A stretch of DNA of 64,000 nucleotides from Patescibacteria group bacterium (GCA_038063515.1 JBBTUY010000001.1:10972-74971), one strand, 5' to 3'; positions 955 through 58,766 are shown, counted from the first letter of the stretch. A program made the numbers and translations. Notes: generated by a model from the sequence alone, not told the origin.

Positions 955-1058
955 ATTAGTAAGTCCTTATCGTATAGGCGTAAAGCTTATTGAATAAGGA
1001 TTTTTCAGTTATAGCTTGTAAAAGAGCTTTGAGTTTGGCGGGGCAAAACCGCTACAAT

Positions 1059-1709
1059 ATGCAAAAGAAAAACTTAATACGCTTCATGGATTCTTTCGTT
1101 TTATTACCTCTCCTTACAATGTCTATGCCATTTAATGGCTTTATAAACAACATTGTAAAGACTGATATAAACAGTTATCCTCAAGTCGTATTAGCAAAAA
1201 AACAAAATACGGAGAAAGATGCTCTTGTAGCCTCCAATCAGGCTAAAGAAGCAGCTATCCAAATAAATGACCTTAAGGCGAAAGCCATAGATGCTTATTT
1301 TGAGGATCGTAATATGCCCTTAAAAGGAGTAGGTAAAAAGATGGTTGAGGAGGCAGAGAAAAATGACCTCGATTATCGTCTTCTACCAGCTATTGCAGTG
1401 CGTGAATCCACAGGGGGTAGACACGCTTGTATTATGGTACCAAACAACCCTTTTGGTTGGGGTTCTTGTAAGATAGGCTTTTCTTCAAACGATAAAGCTA
1501 TCGAAACAGTGGCCCGTAACCTAGGAGGTAACAATCCAAATACTGATCACCATTACGCTAATAAGACTACAAAGGAGATACTTCAGAAATACAATCCTCC
1601 TTCTATTGTGCCAAAGTATGCAGAGCAAGTGATGGGCATTATGGATGTTATTGGAGCTGCAGAAATTACATTAAATACTAACGTCGTTGCTATTAACGAT
1701 TCAAAATAA
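1059..1709 (+). CDS. Hypothetical secreted protein, possible glucosaminidase-like fold
   Basis: Open frame from 990 (TTG); first ATG at 1059 (MQKKNLIRF...) with a hydrophobic N-terminus. No confident family assignment. Confidence 0.45.
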   Translation: MQKKNLIRFMDSFVLLPLLTMSMPFNGFINNIVKTDINSYPQVVLAKKQNTEKDALVASNQAKEAAIQINDLKAKAIDAYFEDRNMPLKGVGKKMVEEAEKNDLDYRLLPAIAVRESTGGRHACIMVPNNPFGWGSCKIGFSSNDKAIETVARNLGGNNPNTDHHYANKTTKEILQKYNPPSIVPKYAEQVMGIMDVIGAAEITLNTNVVAINDSK

Positions 1710-1718
1710 TAAACAATA

Positions 1719-1746
1719 AAAAAACCCGCATATGCGGGTTTTTTTA
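1719..1746. terminator. Bidirectional rho-independent terminator (CCCGCATATGCGGG flanked by A and T runs)
   Basis: Perfect GC-rich palindromic stem with A7 upstream and T8 downstream, between convergent genes. Confidence 0.8.
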
Positions 1747-1763
1747 TTGTTTATTTCTATTAC

Positions 1764-2873
1764 CTATTCTAGGTGCACCAAAGTCATCTTTTGATCTTTT
1801 GGTTCAAAGAGAGTTATTTGGAAATTGTAGTTTTTTCCAAGCTCTAATTTTTCACGTAGTTTGGTTTCAGAAGTAAATGTAGAGTTGTGAACAAGACCAG
1901 CTACTCCTTCTTTTATGGATATGAGTGCGCCGTGTTTGTTGTATTTTATAACAACACCCTTAATGATGTCTCCTTTCTTTAGTTTACCTTCAAACTCCTT
2001 CCAAGGGTTTTCTTTTAGAGCCTTTGTAGATAGGGATATTTTACCATCTTTGATCTCTATTACTTTAGCTTGAACCTTATCACCAACTTTAAACATAGTA
2101 CGTGGATCGTCTACAAGACCCCAATCAAGCTCTGATATGTGTACAAGTCCTTCAAGTCCGTCTTCGAGTTTTAAGAACACACCGAAATCAACAATACCAG
2201 CTACAGCACAATCTACAGTATCTCCGATAGTGTACTTGCTTAGGATTTCTTTCTTTTCTTCTGGGTTGTTGTCTTTCTCAGAGAATATCAATTTACCTTC
2301 TTTAGGAAGTGTAGATATTATCATTACTCCGATACTCTGACCTACTAATTTCTTTAATTCCTTTAAGATCTTATCTTTGTCAGAATCAAGTACTCGAGGA
2401 TAGTGTTCGCTCTTTAACTGAGAAGCAGGTAAGAAACCTTGTATGCCTTGCCATTCTAGGATAAGTCCTCCTTTGTTTGCGTCTTTTATCTCTAGGTTTA
2501 GTACAGTTTTAGACTTTATAGCCTTTTCTGCTTCATTCCAGATTACTGCTTGTCGTGCTTCTTTTAGTGAGAGCTCTGTGTAGCCATCTTCGTTTTCTGT
2601 TTCTACGACTTTTGCTTTAATTACATCACCTAGGTTTATCTTCTTTATTATGTCTTTAGCATTTATGAACTCACGACCGTATATGATACCAGTACCAAAA
2701 GGTGAAAGGTCAACGAATACTGATGACTTTTTGACTAAAATCACAGGACCTTCTACGAGTGTGTCCACCTGAGGCTTGTTTATACTTTTCGCTACAATAG
2801 ACTTTAAAACAGGGTTTTCATCCTGATCTTCGTTGTTTATTTGAGCTACTACTTCTTTTTTAATATTACTCAT
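1764..2873 (-). CDS. rpsA: 30S ribosomal protein S1 (multi S1-domain, short form)
   Basis: Four repeated S1 OB-fold signatures (e.g. GDVIKAKV..., FKVGDKVQAKVIEI...). Confidence 0.8.
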   Translation of the reverse strand: MSNIKKEVVAQINNEDQDENPVLKSIVAKSINKPQVDTLVEGPVILVKKSSVFVDLSPFGTGIIYGREFINAKDIIKKINLGDVIKAKVVETENEDGYTELSLKEARQAVIWNEAEKAIKSKTVLNLEIKDANKGGLILEWQGIQGFLPASQLKSEHYPRVLDSDKDKILKELKKLVGQSIGVMIISTLPKEGKLIFSEKDNNPEEKKEILSKYTIGDTVDCAVAGIVDFGVFLKLEDGLEGLVHISELDWGLVDDPRTMFKVGDKVQAKVIEIKDGKISLSTKALKENPWKEFEGKLKKGDIIKGVVIKYNKHGALISIKEGVAGLVHNSTFTSETKLREKLELGKNYNFQITLFEPKDQKMTLVHLE

Positions 2874-9800: not shown

Positions 9801-10238
9801 ATGAAAAGCTTAACCAAAATTTTAATTTCTTCTTTAGTTTTTATAATTCTCTTGACCCCTGTCATATCTTTTGCCTTTTTGGATTTAAGACAAGGCTTAG
9901 TGACATGTGGTAGAGGTGTAGCTCCTGGTGTACCCGAAGCATACACCCACCCATGTGGATTTAACGACATGATGGATTTTATAAATAACCTTATTCATTT
10001 TGTATTATTTTTCTTAGCTTTACCTATCGCTGCTATAATGGTTGCATATGCAGGATTTTTACTTGTTACCGCAGGAGAAGAGAGTGGCCATGCACGGCAA
10101 AAAGCAAAGAACATATTTACTCATGCTGTTGTCGGCCTTGTCATAGCCATTGCTTCGTGGCTCATTATTCGCTCAGTACTGTCTATAGTAGGATACGATG
10201 GGGCATGGATAGGTTTACCTAAAACAAATGTATTTTAA
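9801..10238 (+). CDS. T4SS pilin-like protein (TrbC/VirB2-type), paralog 1
   Basis: Signal peptide plus two hydrophobic helices around an AGFLLVTAGEE...KAK motif. Confidence 0.55.
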   Translation: MKSLTKILISSLVFIILLTPVISFAFLDLRQGLVTCGRGVAPGVPEAYTHPCGFNDMMDFINNLIHFVLFFLALPIAAIMVAYAGFLLVTAGEESGHARQKAKNIFTHAVVGLVIAIASWLIIRSVLSIVGYDGAWIGLPKTNVF

Positions 10239-10275
10239 TTTTGCCAAAAATTCAATTTGGCGTTACAATATAAAT

Positions 10276-10668
10276 ATGAAATTTTTTATAAGTAACCTGG
10301 TTGTTTTTACTTTTTTAGCTTTTGTTTTATTACTACCAACCTTAACTTTATATGCAGACACAAACCCTGTTCCGCCTACGACTACCCCTACTCCTTCCGG
10401 TAAACTAGTAAATCCAATACCAAGTATCACTTCGATACCTGGCCTTATTAAGACTATATTAGAGGGTCTGCTTAAGATCGGCCTTCCGCTCATAGCACTC
10501 GCTATTATTTATTGTGGATTTCTCTTTGTCGTGGCTCAGGGTAGTGAAGAGAAGCTTACTAAAGCAAAGGATACTTTGCTGTATACGATCATAGGATCAG
10601 CGATACTTCTCGGTTCTTGGGCTATTGCCAAGTTAATAGAGACGACTGTCACAGGTCTTGGAGCATAA
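10276..10668 (+). CDS. T4SS pilin-like protein, paralog 2
   Basis: IYCGFLFVVAQGSEEKLTKAKDTLLYTIIGSAILLGSWAIAK module; ATG 10276 chosen after the upstream stop. Confidence 0.55.
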   Translation: MKFFISNLVVFTFLAFVLLLPTLTLYADTNPVPPTTTPTPSGKLVNPIPSITSIPGLIKTILEGLLKIGLPLIALAIIYCGFLFVVAQGSEEKLTKAKDTLLYTIIGSAILLGSWAIAKLIETTVTGLGA

Positions 10669-10672
10669 ATAT

Positions 10673-11227
10673 ATGCTAAATTTACTAAACACAATACAAG
10701 AAATTCTAAATTCTCTCATACCGTTATTTGTAACTATCGGCATAGTGTATTTCGTATTCGGTGTTGTGCAGTATTTTATAGCTGATGCAGAAGAAGCAAA
10801 AAAGAATGGACGAGATAGGATCATCTATGGAATTATAGGCCTAGCGGCTATTACAGGCCTCTGGGGGCTTGTAAAAATAGTGCAGGACACCTTTGGAGTC
10901 AGCAACTTGTACGATCCAAACGTATCTGTTTCTGGTGTGTGTCGCGTGGGCACAACTTTCGCGACTTTGGTTTATTATATTATTTGCATAATAAATAAAT
11001 CCGTCATACCTCTTTTATTTGCGGTATCCATTTTAGTATTTGTATACGGGACGGTAAACTTCTTCATCATAGGTGCAGGCGAAGAAGCAAAGAGGACTCA
11101 AGGCAAGCAGTTTATGATCTGGGGAGTTGTAGCTCTCACGGTGATGCTCTCAGTTTGGGGATTAGTTAAAATTTTTGGTAGCACTTTTAATATTAATACA
11201 AGCGTCATACCACAGACTAAAGAATAA
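10673..11227 (+). CDS. T4SS pilin-like protein with two tandem pilin modules
   Basis: Two consecutive modules (…ADAEEAKKNGRDRIIYG… and …IIGAGEEAKRTQGKQFMIWG…). Confidence 0.55.
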   Translation: MLNLLNTIQEILNSLIPLFVTIGIVYFVFGVVQYFIADAEEAKKNGRDRIIYGIIGLAAITGLWGLVKIVQDTFGVSNLYDPNVSVSGVCRVGTTFATLVYYIICIINKSVIPLLFAVSILVFVYGTVNFFIIGAGEEAKRTQGKQFMIWGVVALTVMLSVWGLVKIFGSTFNINTSVIPQTKE

Positions 11228-11229
11228 TT

Positions 11230-11682
11230 ATGCTTTGCACATTTGCTACTGACTCAAAAATACAAGACGTACTGAACTACATTACCTGCTTTGTGTCAAA
11301 ATCTATATTGCCTCTCATTTTTACAGTGGCTATAGTCCTCTTTGTTTGGGGTATAGTGCAGTTTTTCATTATAGGTTCAGGTGAAGAGGCAAAGAGGACT
11401 CAGGGCAAGCAGTTTATGATCTGGGGAATACTCGCTATGGCAGTGATCTTGTCTCTCTGGGGGCTCGTACGTATCCTAGGGAGCACTTTTGGCTTAAATA
11501 CAAGTATTTTACCAGGTACTCGGCCCTCGTCTTCTTCTAATTTTAATCCCGCAGGTACAGACCCAATAGACCCAGGGAATTTCCCTATTACCTTACCTGG
11601 GTCTGAGAACAGTGATAACGTGGATTCTCCCATACCTTGTGAGTTTAGTGCAGAAGGTTGCGGTGGTCAGGTTGAGAGTTAG
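11230..11682 (+). CDS. T4SS pilin-like protein, paralog with a Pro/Ser/Gly-rich C-terminal tail
   Basis: IIGSGEEAKRTQGKQFMIWG module nearly identical to the one in the upstream gene. Confidence 0.55.
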   Translation: MLCTFATDSKIQDVLNYITCFVSKSILPLIFTVAIVLFVWGIVQFFIIGSGEEAKRTQGKQFMIWGILAMAVILSLWGLVRILGSTFGLNTSILPGTRPSSSSNFNPAGTDPIDPGNFPITLPGSENSDNVDSPIPCEFSAEGCGGQVES

Positions 11683-11776
11683 CTTTTTATTTAGCGTGTA
11701 GTATAATATATAGGTATTATTTATTATTAAAATAGGTCGCTTATTATTATAAATTTATGTTTGTTAAAAATTAGTT

Positions 11777-12190
11777 ATGAAAAATAAATTAATGGTTTTA
11801 TCAGGTTTAGTTATGATGTCTGCTCCTGTCGTTGCTTTAGCACAGGTGCAAATACAGAGCGGTGGGGCATGTAGTGGTCTTATTGGTACTGGTACAACAC
11901 AAGGAGGAGTAAAGGAGATCATATGTCGTGTTGGAGATATATTAAGTACAATAGTCCCAGTATTGATGGTGCTTGCTATCATCTACTTCGTATGGGGAGT
12001 TATTAACTACGTTATCGCTAGTGATGAAGAAGCTAAAAAAGCAGGAAGAGATAGAATTATCTACGGAGTTATAGGTCTTGCTGTTATCGTCGGTGTATGG
12101 GGACTTGTAAAAATCGTTCAAGATACATTTGGTTTTGATAACACTAATACAAACCCTATAGTTCTACCAACTATCGATATCTATAACTAA
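11777..12190 (+). CDS. T4SS pilin-like protein, paralog
   Basis: Signal peptide ending in ALAQ, plus a VIASDEEAKKAGRDRIIYGVIGLAV module. Confidence 0.55.
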   Translation: MKNKLMVLSGLVMMSAPVVALAQVQIQSGGACSGLIGTGTTQGGVKEIICRVGDILSTIVPVLMVLAIIYFVWGVINYVIASDEEAKKAGRDRIIYGVIGLAVIVGVWGLVKIVQDTFGFDNTNTNPIVLPTIDIYN

Positions 12191-12192
12191 GC

Positions 12193-12516
12193 ATGATGAA
12201 TTTGTTTTCTACTAACATAGCCTATGCTGCGACGCCGGAGCTTGATAAGTTTATCAGGAACGTGGATCGACTTATTATAAATCCCATCATTACCTTACTT
12301 TTTGCTATTGCTGTCGTATATTTTCTTTACGGTGTGTTTCAGTTTTTGTGGGCTAGTGCAAGTGAAGAGAAAAAGACAAATGGCAAGTCGCACATGCTCT
12401 GGGGCATCATCGGGATCACGATCATGATGAGCGTCTGGGCTATCCTTGGTATCGTAATGCGTACCATAGGAGTCACAGGTATTAACCCACAGCAGGGAAC
12501 AGTGGAGCTAAGGTAG
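12193..12516 (+). CDS. T4SS pilin-like protein, paralog
   Basis: LWASASEEKKTNGKSHMLWGIIG module. Confidence 0.5.
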   Translation: MMNLFSTNIAYAATPELDKFIRNVDRLIINPIITLLFAIAVVYFLYGVFQFLWASASEEKKTNGKSHMLWGIIGITIMMSVWAILGIVMRTIGVTGINPQQGTVELR

Positions 12517-12540
12517 TAGAAATAAAATAAATAGAAATGT

Positions 12541-12575
12541 AAAAGAGCCGAATCATAAACGATTCGGCTCTTTTT
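12541..12575. terminator. Bidirectional rho-independent terminator AAAAGAGCCGAATC-ATAAAC-GATTCGGCTCTTTTT
   Basis: Perfect 10-bp stem flanked by A4 and T5, between convergent transcription units. Confidence 0.8.
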
Positions 12576-12644
12576 GTGCTAGCCAACAGCACGATTTTTC
12601 GGCTAAGACCCTTTGACGGGGGTCAGCCGTGTCATCTACAATCG

Positions 12645-13043
12645 TCACCAGCGATTGTAGATGACAACCTCCTGCCCTTTATCAGGGCGGAAGGTGTAAA
12701 ATCCCGCGGGTTCCTCGGGAGCATGATCGCTCCCGGGGCAGTCGTGAATCTCACGACCGCTGGGTGTGTCTATATAGATACACCCACCCTTCGGGTAGAT
12801 GGCTGGAGAAAGCTCTAGCCACTTCCGAAGGCCTTCCTTTGGAATCTTGAAACGCTTGGGGGTTTTAGCCCCGCTCCCACTGGTGGTGGTACCAGTGGAG
12901 GAATTTTTGGCTTCGACTTTTTGAGGGGCCTCAGCCAGTTGGGTTTTTTTGGTGCTACCCGCTTTCTTTATCAGAAAAGTAGTAACACCTAAGATGATCG
13001 CAGCAACAATGGCAATCAACAGAAGCCCGCTTATTTTTTTCAT
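12645..13043 (-). CDS. Small membrane-anchored protein; C-terminal part encoded by a GC-rich palindrome-dense segment
   Basis: Start codon shares one nucleotide with the upstream stop (TAATG). N-terminal TM anchor. The C-terminal 60 aa come from a region of about 58% GC. Confidence 0.4.
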   Translation of the reverse strand: MKKISGLLLIAIVAAIILGVTTFLIKKAGSTKKTQLAEAPQKVEAKNSSTGTTTSGSGAKTPKRFKIPKEGLRKWLELSPAIYPKGGCIYIDTPSGREIHDCPGSDHAPEEPAGFYTFRPDKGQEVVIYNRW

Positions 13044-14062
13044 TAGTTTTTACTCCCTAAGAATTTTGCAACCAGGGCTGCAGTTGCAGGGTCAAGGCTA
13101 AAATTTTGTGCAGCAATATTCTTCGTGGCCTTACCCAAAGCCATTTGAACTTGCTCTTCTGCTCTTAGCCTGTCCATGCCACCTTTGATAATATTTCCGT
13201 CTTCATCTTGACCTCCATTTACAAGGAGATCAACCATACTATCAAAGTGTCCAATTTCGACGATCTGTCCTTTACGTTGCAGCTTTTCTCTGGTTTTTAA
13301 GGCCAGGTCTTCAGCTACTTTTGAGTCCGAAGGAGCTATCTGAGGTATTACAACATTCGTTATTTTGATACCCCAGGCATCGCTGTCATCTTCGTTTAAT
13401 CTCTCAAGGAGTTGGTCTCCCAACTCCTCATTCGAACTAAGCACTGTTTCAAGATTCATTTGACGCACGCGCACTCTGATTACTTGGTCACGTGCGTCAT
13501 CGATACCTTGCTTTATGTCTTTCATTTCTACCCCGAGATATTCGTAAAGATTGTCGGGGTAATAAGTTACTGTTGCGCTTACAGTAACTTCTACGTTATC
13601 TGCGGTCATAACTCTTAGTTTGTCGAGCGGCATTATCTGCAGTTTGACGTCCTGCGTTTTCAAGGAAAATGGGAGAGGGATCCAACGTAGTCCTTCTCCA
13701 ATTTGAATTCTTTGCCGTTCGCCAAAAAGGAGGAGTAATCCTCTATGCCCAATTTCGACGGTGATGAGCCCATTGACGACCCACCACCCTAAGAATATCG
13801 TCCAAGCTAATAGCCCGAACCATATCCATGACATCGAGAAGCTTAGAAACGTTTCGTAGGCGCTTAGTAATACTAATCCCGCGCCCAGTATGCCCAGTAT
13901 TCTGTCGCCTTGTTCTTTTAAGAATACTAGACATACGATTCCGCCAATAATTCCGGCTACCACACTTAGGCCTTCGAAGCCGTAGATGCGGTAGATGAAT
14001 ATGGTGATTAATCCCAGCAGAGCTGCTGCCAGAACTAATCCTAAAAATTTTTCTTTTCCCAT
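13043..14062 (-). CDS. SPFH/band-7 (stomatin/HflK-like) membrane protein
   Basis: N-terminal multi-TM region, then an SPFH core (…IGHRGLLLLFGERQ…VMTADNVEVTVSATVTY…); AAGGAGA SD 5 nt before the ATG. Confidence 0.7.
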   Translation of the reverse strand: MGKEKFLGLVLAAALLGLITIFIYRIYGFEGLSVVAGIIGGIVCLVFLKEQGDRILGILGAGLVLLSAYETFLSFSMSWIWFGLLAWTIFLGWWVVNGLITVEIGHRGLLLLFGERQRIQIGEGLRWIPLPFSLKTQDVKLQIMPLDKLRVMTADNVEVTVSATVTYYPDNLYEYLGVEMKDIKQGIDDARDQVIRVRVRQMNLETVLSSNEELGDQLLERLNEDDSDAWGIKITNVVIPQIAPSDSKVAEDLALKTREKLQRKGQIVEIGHFDSMVDLLVNGGQDEDGNIIKGGMDRLRAEEQVQMALGKATKNIAAQNFSLDPATAALVAKFLGSKN

Positions 14063-14300
14063 AACGTCTCCTTCGCGCCAGAGGCGCAGTGTTGCGCCCG
14101 CGACGGCGCGGGTGAGTTAACGTTTCTGGATAAATAAATTTACCCAGCTTTAAAAATTCCACTACCTCAAGGTCTCCCTCGAAATACTAAAATTTTTACG
14201 AACTGCATAGTTTGCTCACTAAAGAGCCAGTTTTTACTCGCTACTTGGTAAGCAAACCATGCAATTCTTATTTTATTGTCAGGGGACAGTCTACTGGTGT

Positions 14301-14329
14301 ATTATAGCATATAAATACAGAAAAGTCAA
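14301..14329 (-). promoter_or_regulatory. Consensus sigma70 promoter TTGACT-17-TATAAT (minus strand) with overlapping palindrome GTCAATATTGAC
   Basis: Read on the reverse complement: -35 at 14329-14324, -10 at 14306-14301. A 12-bp perfect palindrome (14325-14336) overlaps the -35. Confidence 0.55.
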
Positions 14330-14375: not shown

Positions 14376-14422
14376 AAAAAGACCCTTATATAGATACGTC
14401 TATATCGGGGGCTTTTTCTTTT
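14376..14422 (-). terminator. Hairpin plus U-run directly after the NYN gene stop
   Basis: AAAAAGACCC...GGGGGCTTTTT outer stem with an inner TATAGA/TCTATA stem; on the minus strand it is followed by a T-run. Confidence 0.55.
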
Positions 14423-14903
14423 AGGACTGACTAGAGAATTTATGATAATGATCATTTAAGAAGGTCAGTTCAATATTCTTATTTCGGAGTAAAATAGAAC
14501 ATTTGTTCTTATCTGGTGCTAAAACACAGGTTAATGACTTGTTTTGCTCTAAAAACTCAACAAGGCAACCAAAGTCACCATCCCCAGTTATTAAAATACA
14601 TGAATTAAAAGCTTTAGTATAGAAATCTGAAACATTTTTTAGAACGAGTTCAGCATCACAGTTACCCTTTATTCTTCCATCAACAGATATGGTTTGTTTA
14701 AAAACAAGAATAAAACCACACTCTTGAAGGTATTCATAAAATTTTACCCTATTTGGAACAAGACCTATAAATAGGTATATATTTTCTGGGTTATATTTTT
14801 GACGAAGCCAGCCTCTAAATTTCTTATAGTCTATTTCGAAACCAAGTTCTTTTGCTGCTCTGTAGAGATTATTTCCATCAATATAAATATTAATTTTATT
14901 CAT
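14421..14903 (-). CDS. NYN-domain (LabA-like) protein, putative RNase
   Basis: IYIDGNNLY, GNCDAEL and ITGDGDF motifs of the NYN fold. Confidence 0.7.
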   Translation of the reverse strand: MNKINIYIDGNNLYRAAKELGFEIDYKKFRGWLRQKYNPENIYLFIGLVPNRVKFYEYLQECGFILVFKQTISVDGRIKGNCDAELVLKNVSDFYTKAFNSCILITGDGDFGCLVEFLEQNKSLTCVLAPDKNKCSILLRNKNIELTFLNDHYHKFSSQS

Positions 14904-14965: not shown

Positions 14966-15661
14966 TTAATCGTGCTTCGCAGGCTTTGCGTGATATCTAG
15001 CTTCTCCACCAAAGATTTTTCGGACGAGGACGACTATTATAAGTATGATTATTGCAAATAGTATCCACTGTAGAAGTCCTGAGGGCATGAAGCTACCGTT
15101 ACCAAAGATTGCATTCGAAGCGAGGTCAGAATAATTTCCTATAGATTTATCTTCTGTCGTACTTTTGTTTTGGTTATATAGGTAGTTGTTAGGATCTTCG
15201 TTCTTTTGAGTATTTGTAGTTTGTGCAGTTTTTACATAACCCTTTATTTTAAAGAATATTGCAACAGAATACGCACTTCTACTAGGGTTGTATACGTTTA
15301 TGTATCCACCGTCAGAGCTCGAAAGGTCTGCATTAGTTAGGTGTATAAAGAGGTGCCTTCCATCTATGAAAGTCGTAGGGCGAGGGGAGCCTTTCCATCT
15401 TGCGACAGAGTTAGCCATAAATCCACGACCCGTAAGAGTAACAGTTGTATCAGGTTCACCTGAGTTTGCTGATCCAGGCTTTAAAGAATAAAGCTGTGGT
15501 ACGGGGTTCTGTGAGGGTGCTAGGAAGTGGTCGTATCCATCATCATAATACTCTGCTTTTGCAGTATGAGGCATAAATGCGAGTCCTAAAGAGAAAATAG
15601 CTAGTATTATCAATGTAGAAACTACTCCATATTTGATTTTTAGACTATTTATTTTATTCAT
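14966..15661 (-). CDS. Secreted, C-terminally membrane-anchored protein with an Ig/IPT-like segment
   Basis: Signal peptide MNKINSLKIKYGVV...AKA; TVTLTGRGF...ARW segment; C-terminal TM plus a basic tail. Start set at ATG 15661 because the longer frame would overlap tRNA-Leu. Confidence 0.45.
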   Translation of the reverse strand: MNKINSLKIKYGVVSTLIILAIFSLGLAFMPHTAKAEYYDDGYDHFLAPSQNPVPQLYSLKPGSANSGEPDTTVTLTGRGFMANSVARWKGSPRPTTFIDGRHLFIHLTNADLSSSDGGYINVYNPSRSAYSVAIFFKIKGYVKTAQTTNTQKNEDPNNYLYNQNKSTTEDKSIGNYSDLASNAIFGNGSFMPSGLLQWILFAIIILIIVVLVRKIFGGEARYHAKPAKHD

Positions 15662-15700
15662 ACCTATATAATAGCATATTTTAAATAAAAAGTCAAGTTG

Positions 15701-15782
15701 TGCTGGAGAAGGGACTCGAACCCTTAAGCCTTGCGGCACTAGTTCCTAAGACTAGCGCGTATACCAATTCCGCCACTCCAGC
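15701..15782 (-). tRNA. tRNA-Leu (anticodon TAG)
   Basis: Cloverleaf with a 7-bp acceptor stem, CTTAGGA anticodon loop, long variable arm, GGTTCGAGTCC T-arm. Confidence 0.8.
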
Positions 15783-15786
15783 AATG

Positions 15787-15859
15787 TGCGCCCTGAAGGG
15801 ATCGAACCTTCGACCTTATCCTTAAGAGGGATCTGCTCTACCAGCTGAGCTAAGGGCGC
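15787..15859 (-). tRNA. tRNA-Lys (anticodon CTT)
   Basis: GCGCCCT acceptor stem, GCTCAGCTGGTAGAGC D-arm, CTCTTAA anticodon loop, GGTTCGATCC T-arm. Confidence 0.8.
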
Positions 15860-15902
15860 ATTATTTTAAATTTTTTAACTTCTATTTTATAACATTCTTC
15901 TG

Positions 15903-16087
15903 TTGAATCCGCTACAGCTGAGCTAAGGGAGTATTTTATATTTTTAAAACCTACCTATATTATTATCTAATAAATTATTTTGTTGAACCCGCTACATCTA
16001 AACTAAGGGCGCATACGTATTTACATCTTATTTTAAACTATAATCTTACTAAAAATCTAACGACCTACCAAAACAACTAAGGGTGCA
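15903..16087 (-). repeat. Three degenerate copies of the 5' portion (acceptor plus D-arm) of tRNA-Lys at about 75-79 bp periodicity (15903-15934, 15983-16013, 16056-16087)
   Basis: Shared core CTAAGGG[C/A/T]G[C/T]AT and GCTACAGCTGAGCTAAGGG; similarity decays with distance from the intact tRNA-Lys. Confidence 0.5.
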
Positions 16088-16117
16088 TTTATAAAACAAA
16101 AAAATTTCAAAAAACGG

Positions 16118-16199
16118 TGCCCGGAGTGGGAGTCGAACCCACATCCCTTACGAGACACGATTTTAAGTCGTGCGCGTATACCAATTCCGCCATCCGGGC
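16118..16199 (-). tRNA. tRNA-Leu (anticodon TAA)
   Basis: GCCCGGA acceptor stem, CTTAAAA anticodon loop, long variable arm, GGGTTCGACTCCC T-arm. Confidence 0.8.
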
Positions 16200-16259
16200 A
16201 ATTTATTTATAACCTTCCTAATATATCAGAGAAATAAAGAAATGTTAAATAAAATGCTG

Positions 16260-16332
16260 AGGCCACGGTGGGATTTGCACCCACGCGTCGCGGTTTTGCA
16301 GACCGCTGTGTTAGCTACTTCACCACGTGGCC
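16260..16332 (-). tRNA. tRNA-Cys (anticodon GCA), non-canonical T-loop UGCAAAU
   Basis: 7-bp GGCCACG acceptor stem, 5-bp anticodon stem with CTGCAAA loop, 5-bp T-stem; 3-bp D-stem. Confidence 0.65.
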
Positions 16333-57700: not shown

Positions 57701-57989
57701 AAAACAAAGTTACTCACACATATATAAAAGTCACACTTGACTTTCTTTTCTATATATACTAGCATACTAGTATGATAGTAATAAATCATTTTCAAATGCA
57801 AAAAAATACATTAAACATAATGAGTGAAAATAGGGAAGTCACTGGGTTATCTTGGTGGGGCGTAAAGCATCTAGCTTTTACGTCTCTCTGTTGATTTCTT
57901 ACTTAATTTTAATTGACTATTTAAAACAAGGAATCCATTAAGTGGCGCAAGAGCGTCATTTTTTTTGTTCTTTAAAAAAGGAGATTAAT

Positions 57990-58766
57990 ATGAAGAGAAA
58001 AGAACTACAGCTCCAGCTGCCAAACGTCGCTGAGATTCCTGCTTGGGTCTTGCGCTCTATTGAGCGCAAGATTAAGAGTGGAACACTTATACTTGTATCT
58101 GCAGTTTGCCCTGACTATGAAAGAGCAGATCGTAGATTTACTTATAAAAATGTTGGCTGGGGTGTACCATACATCGCTGGCCAACATTTGGAAGTGGTCA
58201 AAGCATTAATTTCTCAAATTCCTAATTCTGTTAAAGTTACATACCATGTAACTTTGGCTGATACTGAATTTGATTTACCACTCGTCATGGATCATTTGGT
58301 TGGAGGTGATCCAAATGAATTTCTCCAACGCTGCCAACTTAGTTGCGAGAAAATTCTAGAGCGGGCGCTGGAAATAAATTTGCCAGTCAAAAGCTCAAGC
58401 CGCTTCACTGAGGTTTTCCCTCAATGGTTTCAACTGTATGAATTAGCACTTTTGCAATTCAAACAAGAAGCTAAAGTTAGCTCTTCAACCGGATACGATT
58501 TAGAGTCGGGAGCACAGAAACGTGTCCCACTCTATGCGGCAATGGCGGGTCACGAAGTTGGTGTGGAGTATTGTCGAGAGATGGTATTACGCCAGTGGGC
58601 TCAATATGCGGCATGGGGTGAGGCTGCGCGTGGGGTCTTTGGTCAAGACTTTGTCATGATCAATCACTCGACCCCCAACCTAGGTCGGGTCAATGATCAG
58701 ATTTTCCGGAAGGATAGGGAACGAATTCCAATCCTTCAACTATCGACCACTACGACACCCGAGTAG
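57990..58766 (+). CDS. Hypothetical protein encoded by a GC-rich (about 50%) segment; unknown function
   Basis: AAGGAG SD 6 nt upstream of ATG 57990; composition differs sharply from the flanks. No family recognised. Confidence 0.4.
   Translation: MKRKELQLQLPNVAEIPAWVLRSIERKIKSGTLILVSAVCPDYERADRRFTYKNVGWGVPYIAGQHLEVVKALISQIPNSVKVTYHVTLADTEFDLPLVMDHLVGGDPNEFLQRCQLSCEKILERALEINLPVKSSSRFTEVFPQWFQLYELALLQFKQEAKVSSSTGYDLESGAQKRVPLYAAMAGHEVGVEYCREMVLRQWAQYAAWGEAARGVFGQDFVMINHSTPNLGRVNDQIFRKDRERIPILQLSTTTTPE

Follow-up and report, generated by a model that had tools for sequence, protein, structure and literature searches.

A predicted, positionally conserved chain of hairpins overlies the coding sequence of an SPFH-linked membrane protein gene in Patescibacteria

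Why should a short piece of an AT-rich bacterial genome be rich in GC and, at the same time, crowded with inverted repeats? The question is raised by positions 12576-12900 of a 64,000-nucleotide stretch of DNA from a Patescibacteria group bacterium, the whole of which was analyzed and is called the window below. An initial annotation, made from the sequence alone, proposed that this segment could be horizontally acquired coding sequence, a structured noncoding RNA, or a protein-binding or recombination site. We find that it is mostly explained by ordinary coding sequence, with a genuine overlay of conserved nucleic-acid structure.

The segment is the 325-nt stretch with the highest GC content in the 64 kb, about 4.4 standard deviations over the mean. 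It was rightly described as GC-rich, but its GC content is 55.7% rather than about 58% (57.5% in its best 200-nt window), and the whole window stands at 36.9%, not at the 32% or so first taken as background. Three strong inverted repeats had been reported, and all are present, with coordinates that agree within 1 to 4 nt:

12630-12644 / 12652-12666: inverted repeat, 15-nt arms, 100% complementary, 7-nt spacer
12713-12722 / 12729-12738: inverted repeat, 10-nt arms, 90% complementary
12754-12773 / 12774-12793: inverted repeat, 20-nt arms, 80% complementary; core GGTGTGTCTATA / TATAGATACACC, with one G-T pair

The tetraloop-type hairpin and short palindromes mentioned alongside them were also recovered (CCCTTCGGG and the palindromic GAAGGCCTTC). 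The segment contains 5 perfect inverted repeats of 7 bp or more, against a mean of 0.20 in shuffled versions (maximum, 3 in 1000) and of 0.48 in other 325-nt windows, and the stems are nearly perfect Watson-Crick helices (15/15, 9/9, and 11/12). Since six independent assemblies carry the identical sequence, with zero differences across 1.9 kb, the segment is not an assembly artifact. A scan of genome contigs found only one locus. The sole direct repeat (12593-12628 / 12901-12936) is 75% identical; its mismatches are of mixed type rather than adenine-specific and one copy lies in a 3' untranslated region (UTR), so that, on the evidence of the repeats, a diversity-generating (DGR) variable region was rejected.

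The segment consists, on the minus strand, of the 3' UTR (12576-12644) of a gene that we call X and of coding sequence of X (12645-12900), that is, about its last 72 to 85 codons and a 3' UTR of ~70 nt. The gene and its upstream neighbor are laid out as follows:

12645-13043, minus strand: gene X, encoding a 132-aa single-pass membrane protein
12648-12863, minus strand: coding sequence of the C-terminal 7-strand beta domain (residues 61 to 132), the GC-rich, hairpin-dense core
12575-12644, minus strand: 3' UTR of X, with two hairpins (12576-12592 and 12600-12629)
13043-14062, minus strand: SPFH/Band_7 gene, 339 aa (PF01145, E = 1.5e-18; weak HflK-like match)

The product of X has an identical counterpart at NCBI, where it is labeled a hypothetical protein of Patescibacteria group bacterium. 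It is composed of a transmembrane helix (residues 6 to 28), a disordered linker, and a C-terminal beta domain, which AlphaFold models as seven beta strands with a pLDDT of 95 to 98 over residues 61 to 130. Pfam returned no match for X or for 38 family members, searches of NCBIfam, PADLOC, and PDB sequences with X returned nothing, and Foldseek against the PDB gave only weak cupin/cNMP-like jelly-roll matches (E about 1e-2). A word-indexed search yielded one homolog, P0002, which is 41% identical and keeps the C-terminal domain, and a full HMM search yielded 91 hits including X itself (P0001) and P0002, thus adding 89 cluster representatives. X therefore defines a previously unannotated protein family, and the beta domain is found in every member of it.

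As had been suggested at the outset, the segment encodes the C terminus of the 132-aa protein. Homologs keep its C-terminal residues (IPxEGLRxWLExxPAIYPK..TPSGR..PG..EPAGFYTFRPD..IYNRW), and the family as a whole follows the pattern [RT]F.IP.EGL...L..G....P.GG.I.I.TP.G....D.PG......P.G.Y.F..DP.GS.R.V.IYNRW. Column identities at codon positions 1, 2, and 3 are 0.76, 0.83, and 0.54, respectively. Because the C-terminal residues are kept, third positions vary most, and the fold is predicted with confidence, we regard the segment as almost certainly the coding sequence of a conserved domain. Both strands are indeed open, as first stated: the minus-strand ORF (12645-13043) contains the peptide quoted at the time, and an 80-aa ORF lies antisense to X on the plus strand (12576-12818). 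The latter was rejected, since no antisense frame is open throughout the homologs.

The nucleotide sequence of the X domain is nevertheless more structured than its protein sequence and codon composition require. RNA folding of 12576-12900 departs strongly from that of dinucleotide shuffles (minus strand, z = -9.9 at -163 kcal/mol; plus strand, z = -12.8 at -174 kcal/mol), and the segment remains the window's top outlier on both strands once folding energy has been regressed on GC. Synonymous-codon shuffles within the domain preserve protein sequence, codon composition, and GC content; against them, the X domain folds at -120.7 kcal/mol versus -88.9 ± 5.5 (z = -5.8), and a second run over 78 codons of X gave z = -4.9. 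For 30 long ORFs in the window, the same test on their last 85 codons gave a mean z of -0.64, with two outliers, one of which is the SPFH gene of the X operon. Among 17 family genes from 15 loci the mean z is -2.40, compared with -0.52 for 29 independent control CDS ends of the window (Mann-Whitney p = 5e-5), and the excess appears across lineages that share just 30 to 45% protein identity. It is not universal: the genes L013b (+0.47), L015 (+0.07), and L002 (-1.05) do not show it.

Within the coding sequence, the minimum-free-energy and centroid structures agree on a chain of hairpins, which a further hairpin enclosing the stop codon continues:

12667-12695, 12714-12737, 12738-12760, 12761-12786, 12788-12831, 12847-12868, and 12877-12898, minus strand: hairpin chain in the X CDS
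12630-12666, minus strand: 15-bp hairpin, perfectly paired, around the stop codon; codons V-I-Y-N-R form its 5' arm and the UTR its 3' arm

The hairpins of the chain recur at the same places in homologs, partly compensated and sometimes shifted in register. When the homologous structures are mapped on the codon alignment, hairpins fall at W-L-E..P-A and K-L-G..T-P-S, with further equivalent positions at G-R..x-P-G, P-G..P-G, and F..D-P-P-G-S..R-K. The bracket profiles of 12 homologs have a mean pairwise correlation of 0.213, compared with 0.104 ± 0.022 for synonymous shuffles. Two helices, KLG::TPS and F::RK, stay in one register in most of the sequences and carry compensatory double changes; for instance, the third base of a Leu codon and that of a Pro codon form U-A in 4 sequences, C-G in 4, and U-G in 2. 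On these two helices 82.6% of the cells are paired, versus 38 to 53% when the partner is slid by 1 to 3 columns. Double-change cells number 22, against 10.7 ± 3.3 in shuffles (0/500 reach 22) and 4 to 10 in slid controls, with the proviso that these are related, coding sequences, so that shuffle-based controls overstate the significance. RNAalifold recovers only these two shared helices, with a small covariation term (-0.67 kcal/mol), because several hairpins shift register between subfamilies. Such shifts suggest either that selection favors the presence of a stem at a given position, whatever its exact pairing, or that stems are repeatedly re-created.

The clearest case for selection on nucleic-acid structure comes from the hairpin that encloses the stop codon, since one of its arms is noncoding. 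Its 5' arm (GUC AUC UAC AAU CG) pairs with the first bases of the UTR, and its loop, CUGGUGA, contains the UGA stop codon (12645-12647). The duplex has a ΔG of -23.3, compared with -10.5 ± 2.7 for shuffled UTRs (p = 0.001), and an equivalent hairpin is found in ~14/17 family genes; when CDS ends are tested against shuffled versions of their own UTRs, the combined p is 3e-6. Moreover, the noncoding arm tracks the codon in use (CGC-UGG/CCAGCG, CGU-UGG/CCAACG, and AGA-UGG/UCUG), and the arms read AAUCG/CGAUU in the window versus AACCG/CGGUU in the related locus L011. The stop hairpins of homologs differ in length and register.

The 3' UTR that follows is also a family feature. Relatives share an element, GCGCCCGACCAGCGCAAAAGAGGUCAGAAAGGAG...CAAUCGCGCUGGCCACGC, followed by the terminator; its common blocks are AATCGYGCTG..GGC and a GACC(C)..(G)GGTC hairpin. 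In locus L013 each of the three X genes is followed by the element, which has no other occurrence among the loci fetched. The window carries a divergent copy, in which the hairpins are kept and the Shine-Dalgarno-like (SD-like) AGAAAGGAG block is absent. A small ORF after this block in the relatives' UTRs was considered and rejected: an ATG is present in some loci only, and frames and peptides are not conserved. The suggestion of a structured noncoding RNA gene found no support in Rfam. A scan of 12300-13200 with E values up to 10 gave only terminator look-alikes, at 12508-12579 and all far below thresholds, and in the window Rfam finds only tRNAs, in agreement with the earlier failure to match tmRNA, RNase P, SRP, or 6S RNA.

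Could these hairpins be a nonfunctional by-product of plain coding sequence, generated by a self-complementary amino acid pattern, GC-rich codons, and template-switch mutations (quasi-palindrome correction)? We consider this the strongest competing explanation, albeit an unlikely one. The near-perfect Watson-Crick stems are as expected of recent DNA-level events, the two strands fold equally well (mean z of -2.76 for sense and -2.45 for antisense), and the drift of hairpin registers between subfamilies, like the family members that lack an excess, would fit a by-product. In addition, the amino acid sequence forces part of the pairing (WLE with APA, KLG with TPS, and PG with PG). However, synonymous shuffles with the same protein and codon composition fold 30 kcal/mol worse, controls from the same genome lack the excess, and its recurrence at 30 to 45% protein identity is not what a by-product predicts; compensatory CG and UA states are maintained, and the noncoding arm of the stop hairpin covaries with codon choice. 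The initial annotation held that conservation of the same C-terminal residues in orthologs would make this plain coding sequence with coincidental palindromes. The residues are conserved and the segment is coding, but the palindromes are not coincidental, since they exceed synonymous-codon shuffles, recur across the family, and show compensatory changes. Taken together, we think it likely that the structure itself is under selection.

Which molecule the structure serves has to be considered in the context of the operon, which is completed by two further elements:

14063-14329, minus strand: promoter (TTGACT-17-TGcTATAAT, 14329-14301) and structured leader of ~230 nt
12541-12574, both strands: bidirectional intrinsic terminator (AAAAGAGCCGAATC-N6-GATTCGGCTCTTTT) with 14-nt perfect arms (terminator scan)

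The ATG of X overlaps the stop codon of the SPFH gene (TAATG), which argues for coupled translation of the two genes. The same direct, overlapping arrangement is present in the window, in L001, L004, L005, L012, and L014, and on the contig of P0020, where a Band_7 gene likewise precedes the X homolog. Downstream of X, a run of T4SS-pilin genes on the plus strand converges toward it. This order, a Band_7 gene, X, and convergent T4SS pilins, is found in the window, L001, L004, L005, L012, L014, L015, and L016, and the same order is kept in all contigs of adequate length, distant members included. Locus L013 has a tandem arrangement, with X present three times and SPFH twice, and no convergent gene. 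X is predicted to be a small membrane-anchored partner of the SPFH protein in Patescibacteria.

The terminator at 12541-12574 is common to the convergent pilin operon (plus strand) and the SPFH-X operon (minus strand), and it aligns with the AAAAGGGCGG..CCGCCCTTT terminators of homologs. Around the segment only this site qualifies as an intrinsic terminator, with a U run behind a GC-rich stem; the 15-bp stop hairpin lacks such a run. Elsewhere in the window, the strongly folding region 1651-1850 corresponds to a 22-bp bidirectional terminator between convergent genes. At the other end of the operon, the promoter is conserved (TTGACTTTT...TGATACAAT), and both promoter and long leader hairpin are kept in L013 and L014. 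The leader folds with z = -10.5 and is a GC-corrected outlier on the minus strand only; an Rfam scan of it gave one chance miRNA match and nothing else. In this genome, all 7 of 7 windows along the SPFH CDS exceed synonymous shuffles (z from -1.9 to -5.3), so that the whole SPFH-X operon, including its strongly folded leader, follows the same structured trend. In four relatives the SPFH gene shows only slight structure, and the strongest folding usually lies in the X domain. The ribosome-binding site and start junction of X are unstructured (z = +0.55), as one would expect where translation initiates.

With a convergent pilin array downstream of X in at least eight loci, the structure might instead serve the plus strand or the convergent layout, by shaping antisense RNA from pilin read-through, by providing back-up terminators or roadblocks, or by self-folding against sense-antisense duplexes. 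The plus strand folds slightly better (-174 versus -163 kcal/mol), it has two extra terminator-like hairpins with T runs (12574-12594 and 12877-12898), and two A-C mismatches of the sense strand become G-U pairs on it. Nevertheless, we find such a role improbable. The extra terminator-like sites are not conserved among homologs, and the tandem X genes of L013 retain the UTR element and the stop hairpin with no gene converging on them, two of the three showing excess structure (z of -2.1 and -2.8). Family-wide, G-U cells outnumber A-C cells by 32 to 18 (p = 0.065), which points weakly to the sense strand in a comparison that is itself biased, the structure being derived from that strand. A candidate antisense promoter (TTGACG-18-TACAAT, 12613-12642) was rejected as a mere consensus match, 10 such matches being found in 3 kb where 6.3 are expected; no similar motif was seen in the antisense strand of the L004 3' UTR, the one homolog read.

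We therefore lean toward a coding sequence whose mRNA is also selected for local structure, probably as a module that stabilizes the 3' end. The predicted structure is a string of short hairpins through the X domain, then the stop hairpin, the two UTR hairpins, and finally the terminator. Although the two strands fold equally well, several features suggest that the molecule under selection is the sense mRNA: a leader that folds on one strand only, the setting at a terminator, the UTR element and stop hairpin that the tandem L013 genes retain, and the weak G-U excess. In such a transcript, the hairpin chain could act as a 3'-terminal stability module: after passage of the last ribosome, the stems would refold and block 3'-to-5' exonucleases, and they may also restrict access by endonucleases, giving the SPFH-X message a long functional half-life. 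Protection by the hairpins of the CDS would be intermittent, because translating ribosomes unwind them. The unstructured start region of X would leave coupled translation unhindered. We put forward the stabilizer function as such only tentatively.

A more ambitious possibility, which we hold to be rather doubtful, is that SPFH-X transcripts carry a conserved multipart RNA architecture amounting to a system of posttranscriptional control or stability. Such an architecture may include the leader with its conserved long hairpin, a possible upstream ORF of 7 or 8 codons, the hairpin chain, the stop hairpin, and the 3' UTR element. If so, protein sequence and RNA structure would have coevolved over the full length of a domain, with a small RNA possibly being released from the 3' UTR block.

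Alternatively, the hairpins could tune translation, either by slowing ribosomes for cotranslational folding of the beta domain and its assembly with the SPFH oligomer or by setting the X:SPFH stoichiometry. The overlapping stop and start codons (TAATG) imply coupled translation, and the hairpins lie over the folded domain, not the linker. However, bacterial ribosomes unwind short stems efficiently, and the UTR and stop hairpins are beyond the reach of elongation control, which leaves little room for this explanation.

The GC jump itself could reflect horizontal acquisition, as initially proposed, here taken as a recent foreign segment from a GC-richer donor. In the X domain, GC is 0.560 and GC3 0.603, where the protein and the codon usage of the genome predict 0.437 and 0.280, respectively; about two-thirds of the excess thus come from synonymous choice. 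The high GC3 would be in line with transfer, as would the GC content of the SPFH-X operon, which is overall richer than the adjacent pilin genes. In the same domain, G or C occupies the third position at 40/59 paired sites, compared with 12/26 unpaired ones. Against transfer, the segment encodes the domain that defines the family and is present in every member. The order of Band_7 gene, X, and pilins is shared by at least eight related loci, relatives also keep the adjacent membrane protein gene together with the pilins, and the local GC rise recurs in L005 (0.60 versus 0.43) and L015 (0.56 versus 0.43). Transfer would also leave the folding beyond synonymous shuffles unexplained, and we judge it very improbable.

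Least probable of all is a DNA-level site (a recombinase core, a cruciform, or the binding site of a dimeric protein): perfect 15-bp inverted arms around a 7-bp spacer, strand-symmetric stability, and a tRNA cluster and inserted NYN gene nearby would suit it, but the 15-nt arm has no other copy beyond chance in the 64-kb window, one arm belongs to the conserved end of the coding sequence, IYNRW, many of the conserved pairs are G-U wobbles (32 cells), plasmid and phage collections searched with the segment gave no match, and a tyrosine-recombinase core was rejected because, despite the 15-7-15 geometry, there is no second site in the window and the stop hairpins of homologs vary in length and register, with no fixed site.

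For the annotation of such genomes, the lesson is that a palindromic GC spike in AT-rich DNA need not be foreign DNA or an RNA gene. Conserved RNA structure spanning a whole domain is well documented in viruses and seldom reported for bacterial chromosomal genes, and X offers a compact, testable example in the Patescibacteria, in which gene regulation is almost unstudied. X also represents an unannotated family that would be tied to an SPFH scaffold as its constant partner, beside a pilin array that these episymbionts probably use at the cell surface.

The gene pair is reminiscent of the NfeD-type partners of SPFH proteins, such as E. coli QmcA-YbbJ and B. subtilis YuaF-YuaG. Like them, X is small and membrane anchored, with a soluble beta domain, and it is encoded in an operon with an SPFH/Band_7 gene, probably with translational coupling. 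Unlike NfeD, X has no match to PF01957 or to any other Pfam or NCBIfam family, its predicted domain has 7 strands and a weak cupin/cNMP-like resemblance instead of a 5-strand OB barrel, and its family was seen only in Patescibacteria-type contexts beside pilin arrays. Membership in the NfeD family was consequently rejected: the SPFH/Band_7 operon context is shared, but the defining PF01957 OB-fold domain was not found. A literature search on Patescibacteria and SPFH gave nothing relevant.

As for the sequence itself, in-frame palindromic elements are known as the Rickettsia palindromic elements, and the yeast mitochondrial DNA contains GC clusters; these resemble the X segment in that GC-rich or palindromic sequence is translated in an AT-rich genome. 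They are, however, mobile multicopy insertions absent from orthologs, whereas the X segment is single copy, conserved, and family defining. Indeed, an insertion of a dispersed palindromic repeat (MITE, REP, or RPE-like) was rejected, with an arm that is unique in 64 kb, no plasmid or phage match, and a segment present in all homologs. Small RNAs derived from 3' UTRs are known from envelope-stress operons, as in the case of CpxQ from cpxP. The X family similarly has a conserved block between stop codon and terminator in a membrane-related operon, but the UTR copy in the window, unlike those of its relatives, has lost the most conserved block (GGTCAGAAAGGAG).

Closer parallels are offered by two classes of mRNA structure. 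In 1987, Newbury et al. reportedly described 3' stem-loop stabilizers of mRNA (REP/BIME), together with terminator hairpins, that act against PNPase and RNase II. Like these, the X hairpins are GC rich, lie at the 3' end of an operon transcript, and are proposed to block 3'-to-5' decay. Unlike REPs, which are intergenic and dispersed repeats, the X stems lie mostly within a conserved CDS and have sequences unique in the window, and their stabilizing role is a proposal. Katz and Burge are said to have reported, in Genome Research in 2003, that bacterial coding regions are under selection for local secondary structure of the mRNA. General reviews of such selection are available (e.g., PMC3575835). 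In keeping with this class, the native X CDS beats codon shuffles that encode the same protein, and its stems are local and short range. The effect in X differs in being extreme for one domain (z about -5) and in being position conserved across a family, with compensatory changes, through the stop codon and into a conserved 3' UTR. By analogy, then, X appears to belong to known classes, namely, selection for local mRNA structure and 3' stem-loop stabilizers; what sets it apart from them is the strength of the structure, its conservation across a protein family, and its span of domain, stop codon, and UTR.

The 5' end of the SPFH-X operon, which comprises an SPFH/Band_7 gene followed by X, the gene of a 132-aa membrane protein, was analyzed by folding and by comparison with two loci from relatives, L013 and L014.

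Window 14063-14329, minus strand: leader and promoter of the SPFH-X operon

The promoter (TTGACT-17-TGnTAYAAT) is conserved, and the leader of about 230 nt folds with a z of -10.5, on the minus strand only. Both L013 and L014 retain the leader's long hairpin, GCATGGTTTGCTTACCAAG...CTCTTTAGTGAGCAAACTATGC, with covariation; the region returned no match in Rfam. We consider this leader a candidate new cis-regulatory RNA. It also contains a possible upstream ORF of 7-8 codons (MVCLPSSE*).

In L013, X is present as three paralogues and SPFH as two genes, all on a single contig and arranged in tandem as X, SPFH-X, SPFH-X.

L013 24-389: X
L013 710-1986: SPFH-X
L013 2295-3751: SPFH-X

The SPFH proteins appear to fall into two size classes, about 286-300 aa versus about 340-350 aa, each paired with its own X. 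Some X family members have other architectures: a multi-pass membrane region followed by two tandem X domains, as in P0045 (529 aa), or a kinase-like N-terminal fragment fused to an X domain, in P0018 (273 aa). These arrangements hint at a portable module, extracytoplasmic or peripheral, in the X domain.

The operon is flanked by several features.

Window 9801-12516, plus strand: array of six small T4SS_pilin/TrbC-like genes
Window 14421-14903, minus strand: NYN-domain gene (PF01936, LabA-like nuclease), only 30% GC
Window 15701-16332: cluster of four tRNA genes, next in order along the window

The pilin array is convergent with the SPFH-X operon, and this layout is kept in all related contigs long enough to judge, suggesting a functional link between the two. 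The NYN gene lies between a CoaZ-repeat membrane protein gene (14966-15739) and the SPFH operon; since these neighbors directly adjoin each other in L001 and L005, it looks like a lineage-specific insertion.

Three other repeat, GC or folding features were found in the window.

Window 12593-12628 and 12901-12936: 36-nt direct repeat, 75% identity
Window 58241-58621: GC patch (52%) within the plus-strand ORF 57942-58766
Window 1707-1755: very long bidirectional terminator with a 22-bp stem

The direct repeat flanks the GC-rich core of X, with copies in the 3' UTR and the linker coding region; its mismatch types are mixed, and it is probably due to chance. The patch, the second-highest in GC in the window, encodes the C-terminal portion of this ORF's 274-aa product; it also folds better than its synonymous shuffles (z -3.3). 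The terminator, which separates the convergent genes 990-1709 (plus) and 1764-2873 (minus), explains why 1651-1850 stands out as a folding outlier.

In five of the related loci, a conserved 3' UTR element lies immediately downstream of the X genes.

L013 424-436, 2020-2032 and 3782-3794: 3' UTR element
L004 1469-1481: 3' UTR element
L005 3417-3429: 3' UTR element
L009 890-902: 3' UTR element
L011 738-750: 3' UTR element

Its order is a GACC..GGTC hairpin, AGAAAGGAG(G), CAATCGCGCTGGCCACGC and a terminator. An ATG lies 3' of AGAAAGGAG(G) in some loci, and a conserved peptide is absent from these 3' UTRs. AGAAAGGAG(G) is a perfect extended Shine-Dalgarno-like match. The element might represent an sRNA derived from the 3' UTR, or else a stabilizer that binds ribosomes.
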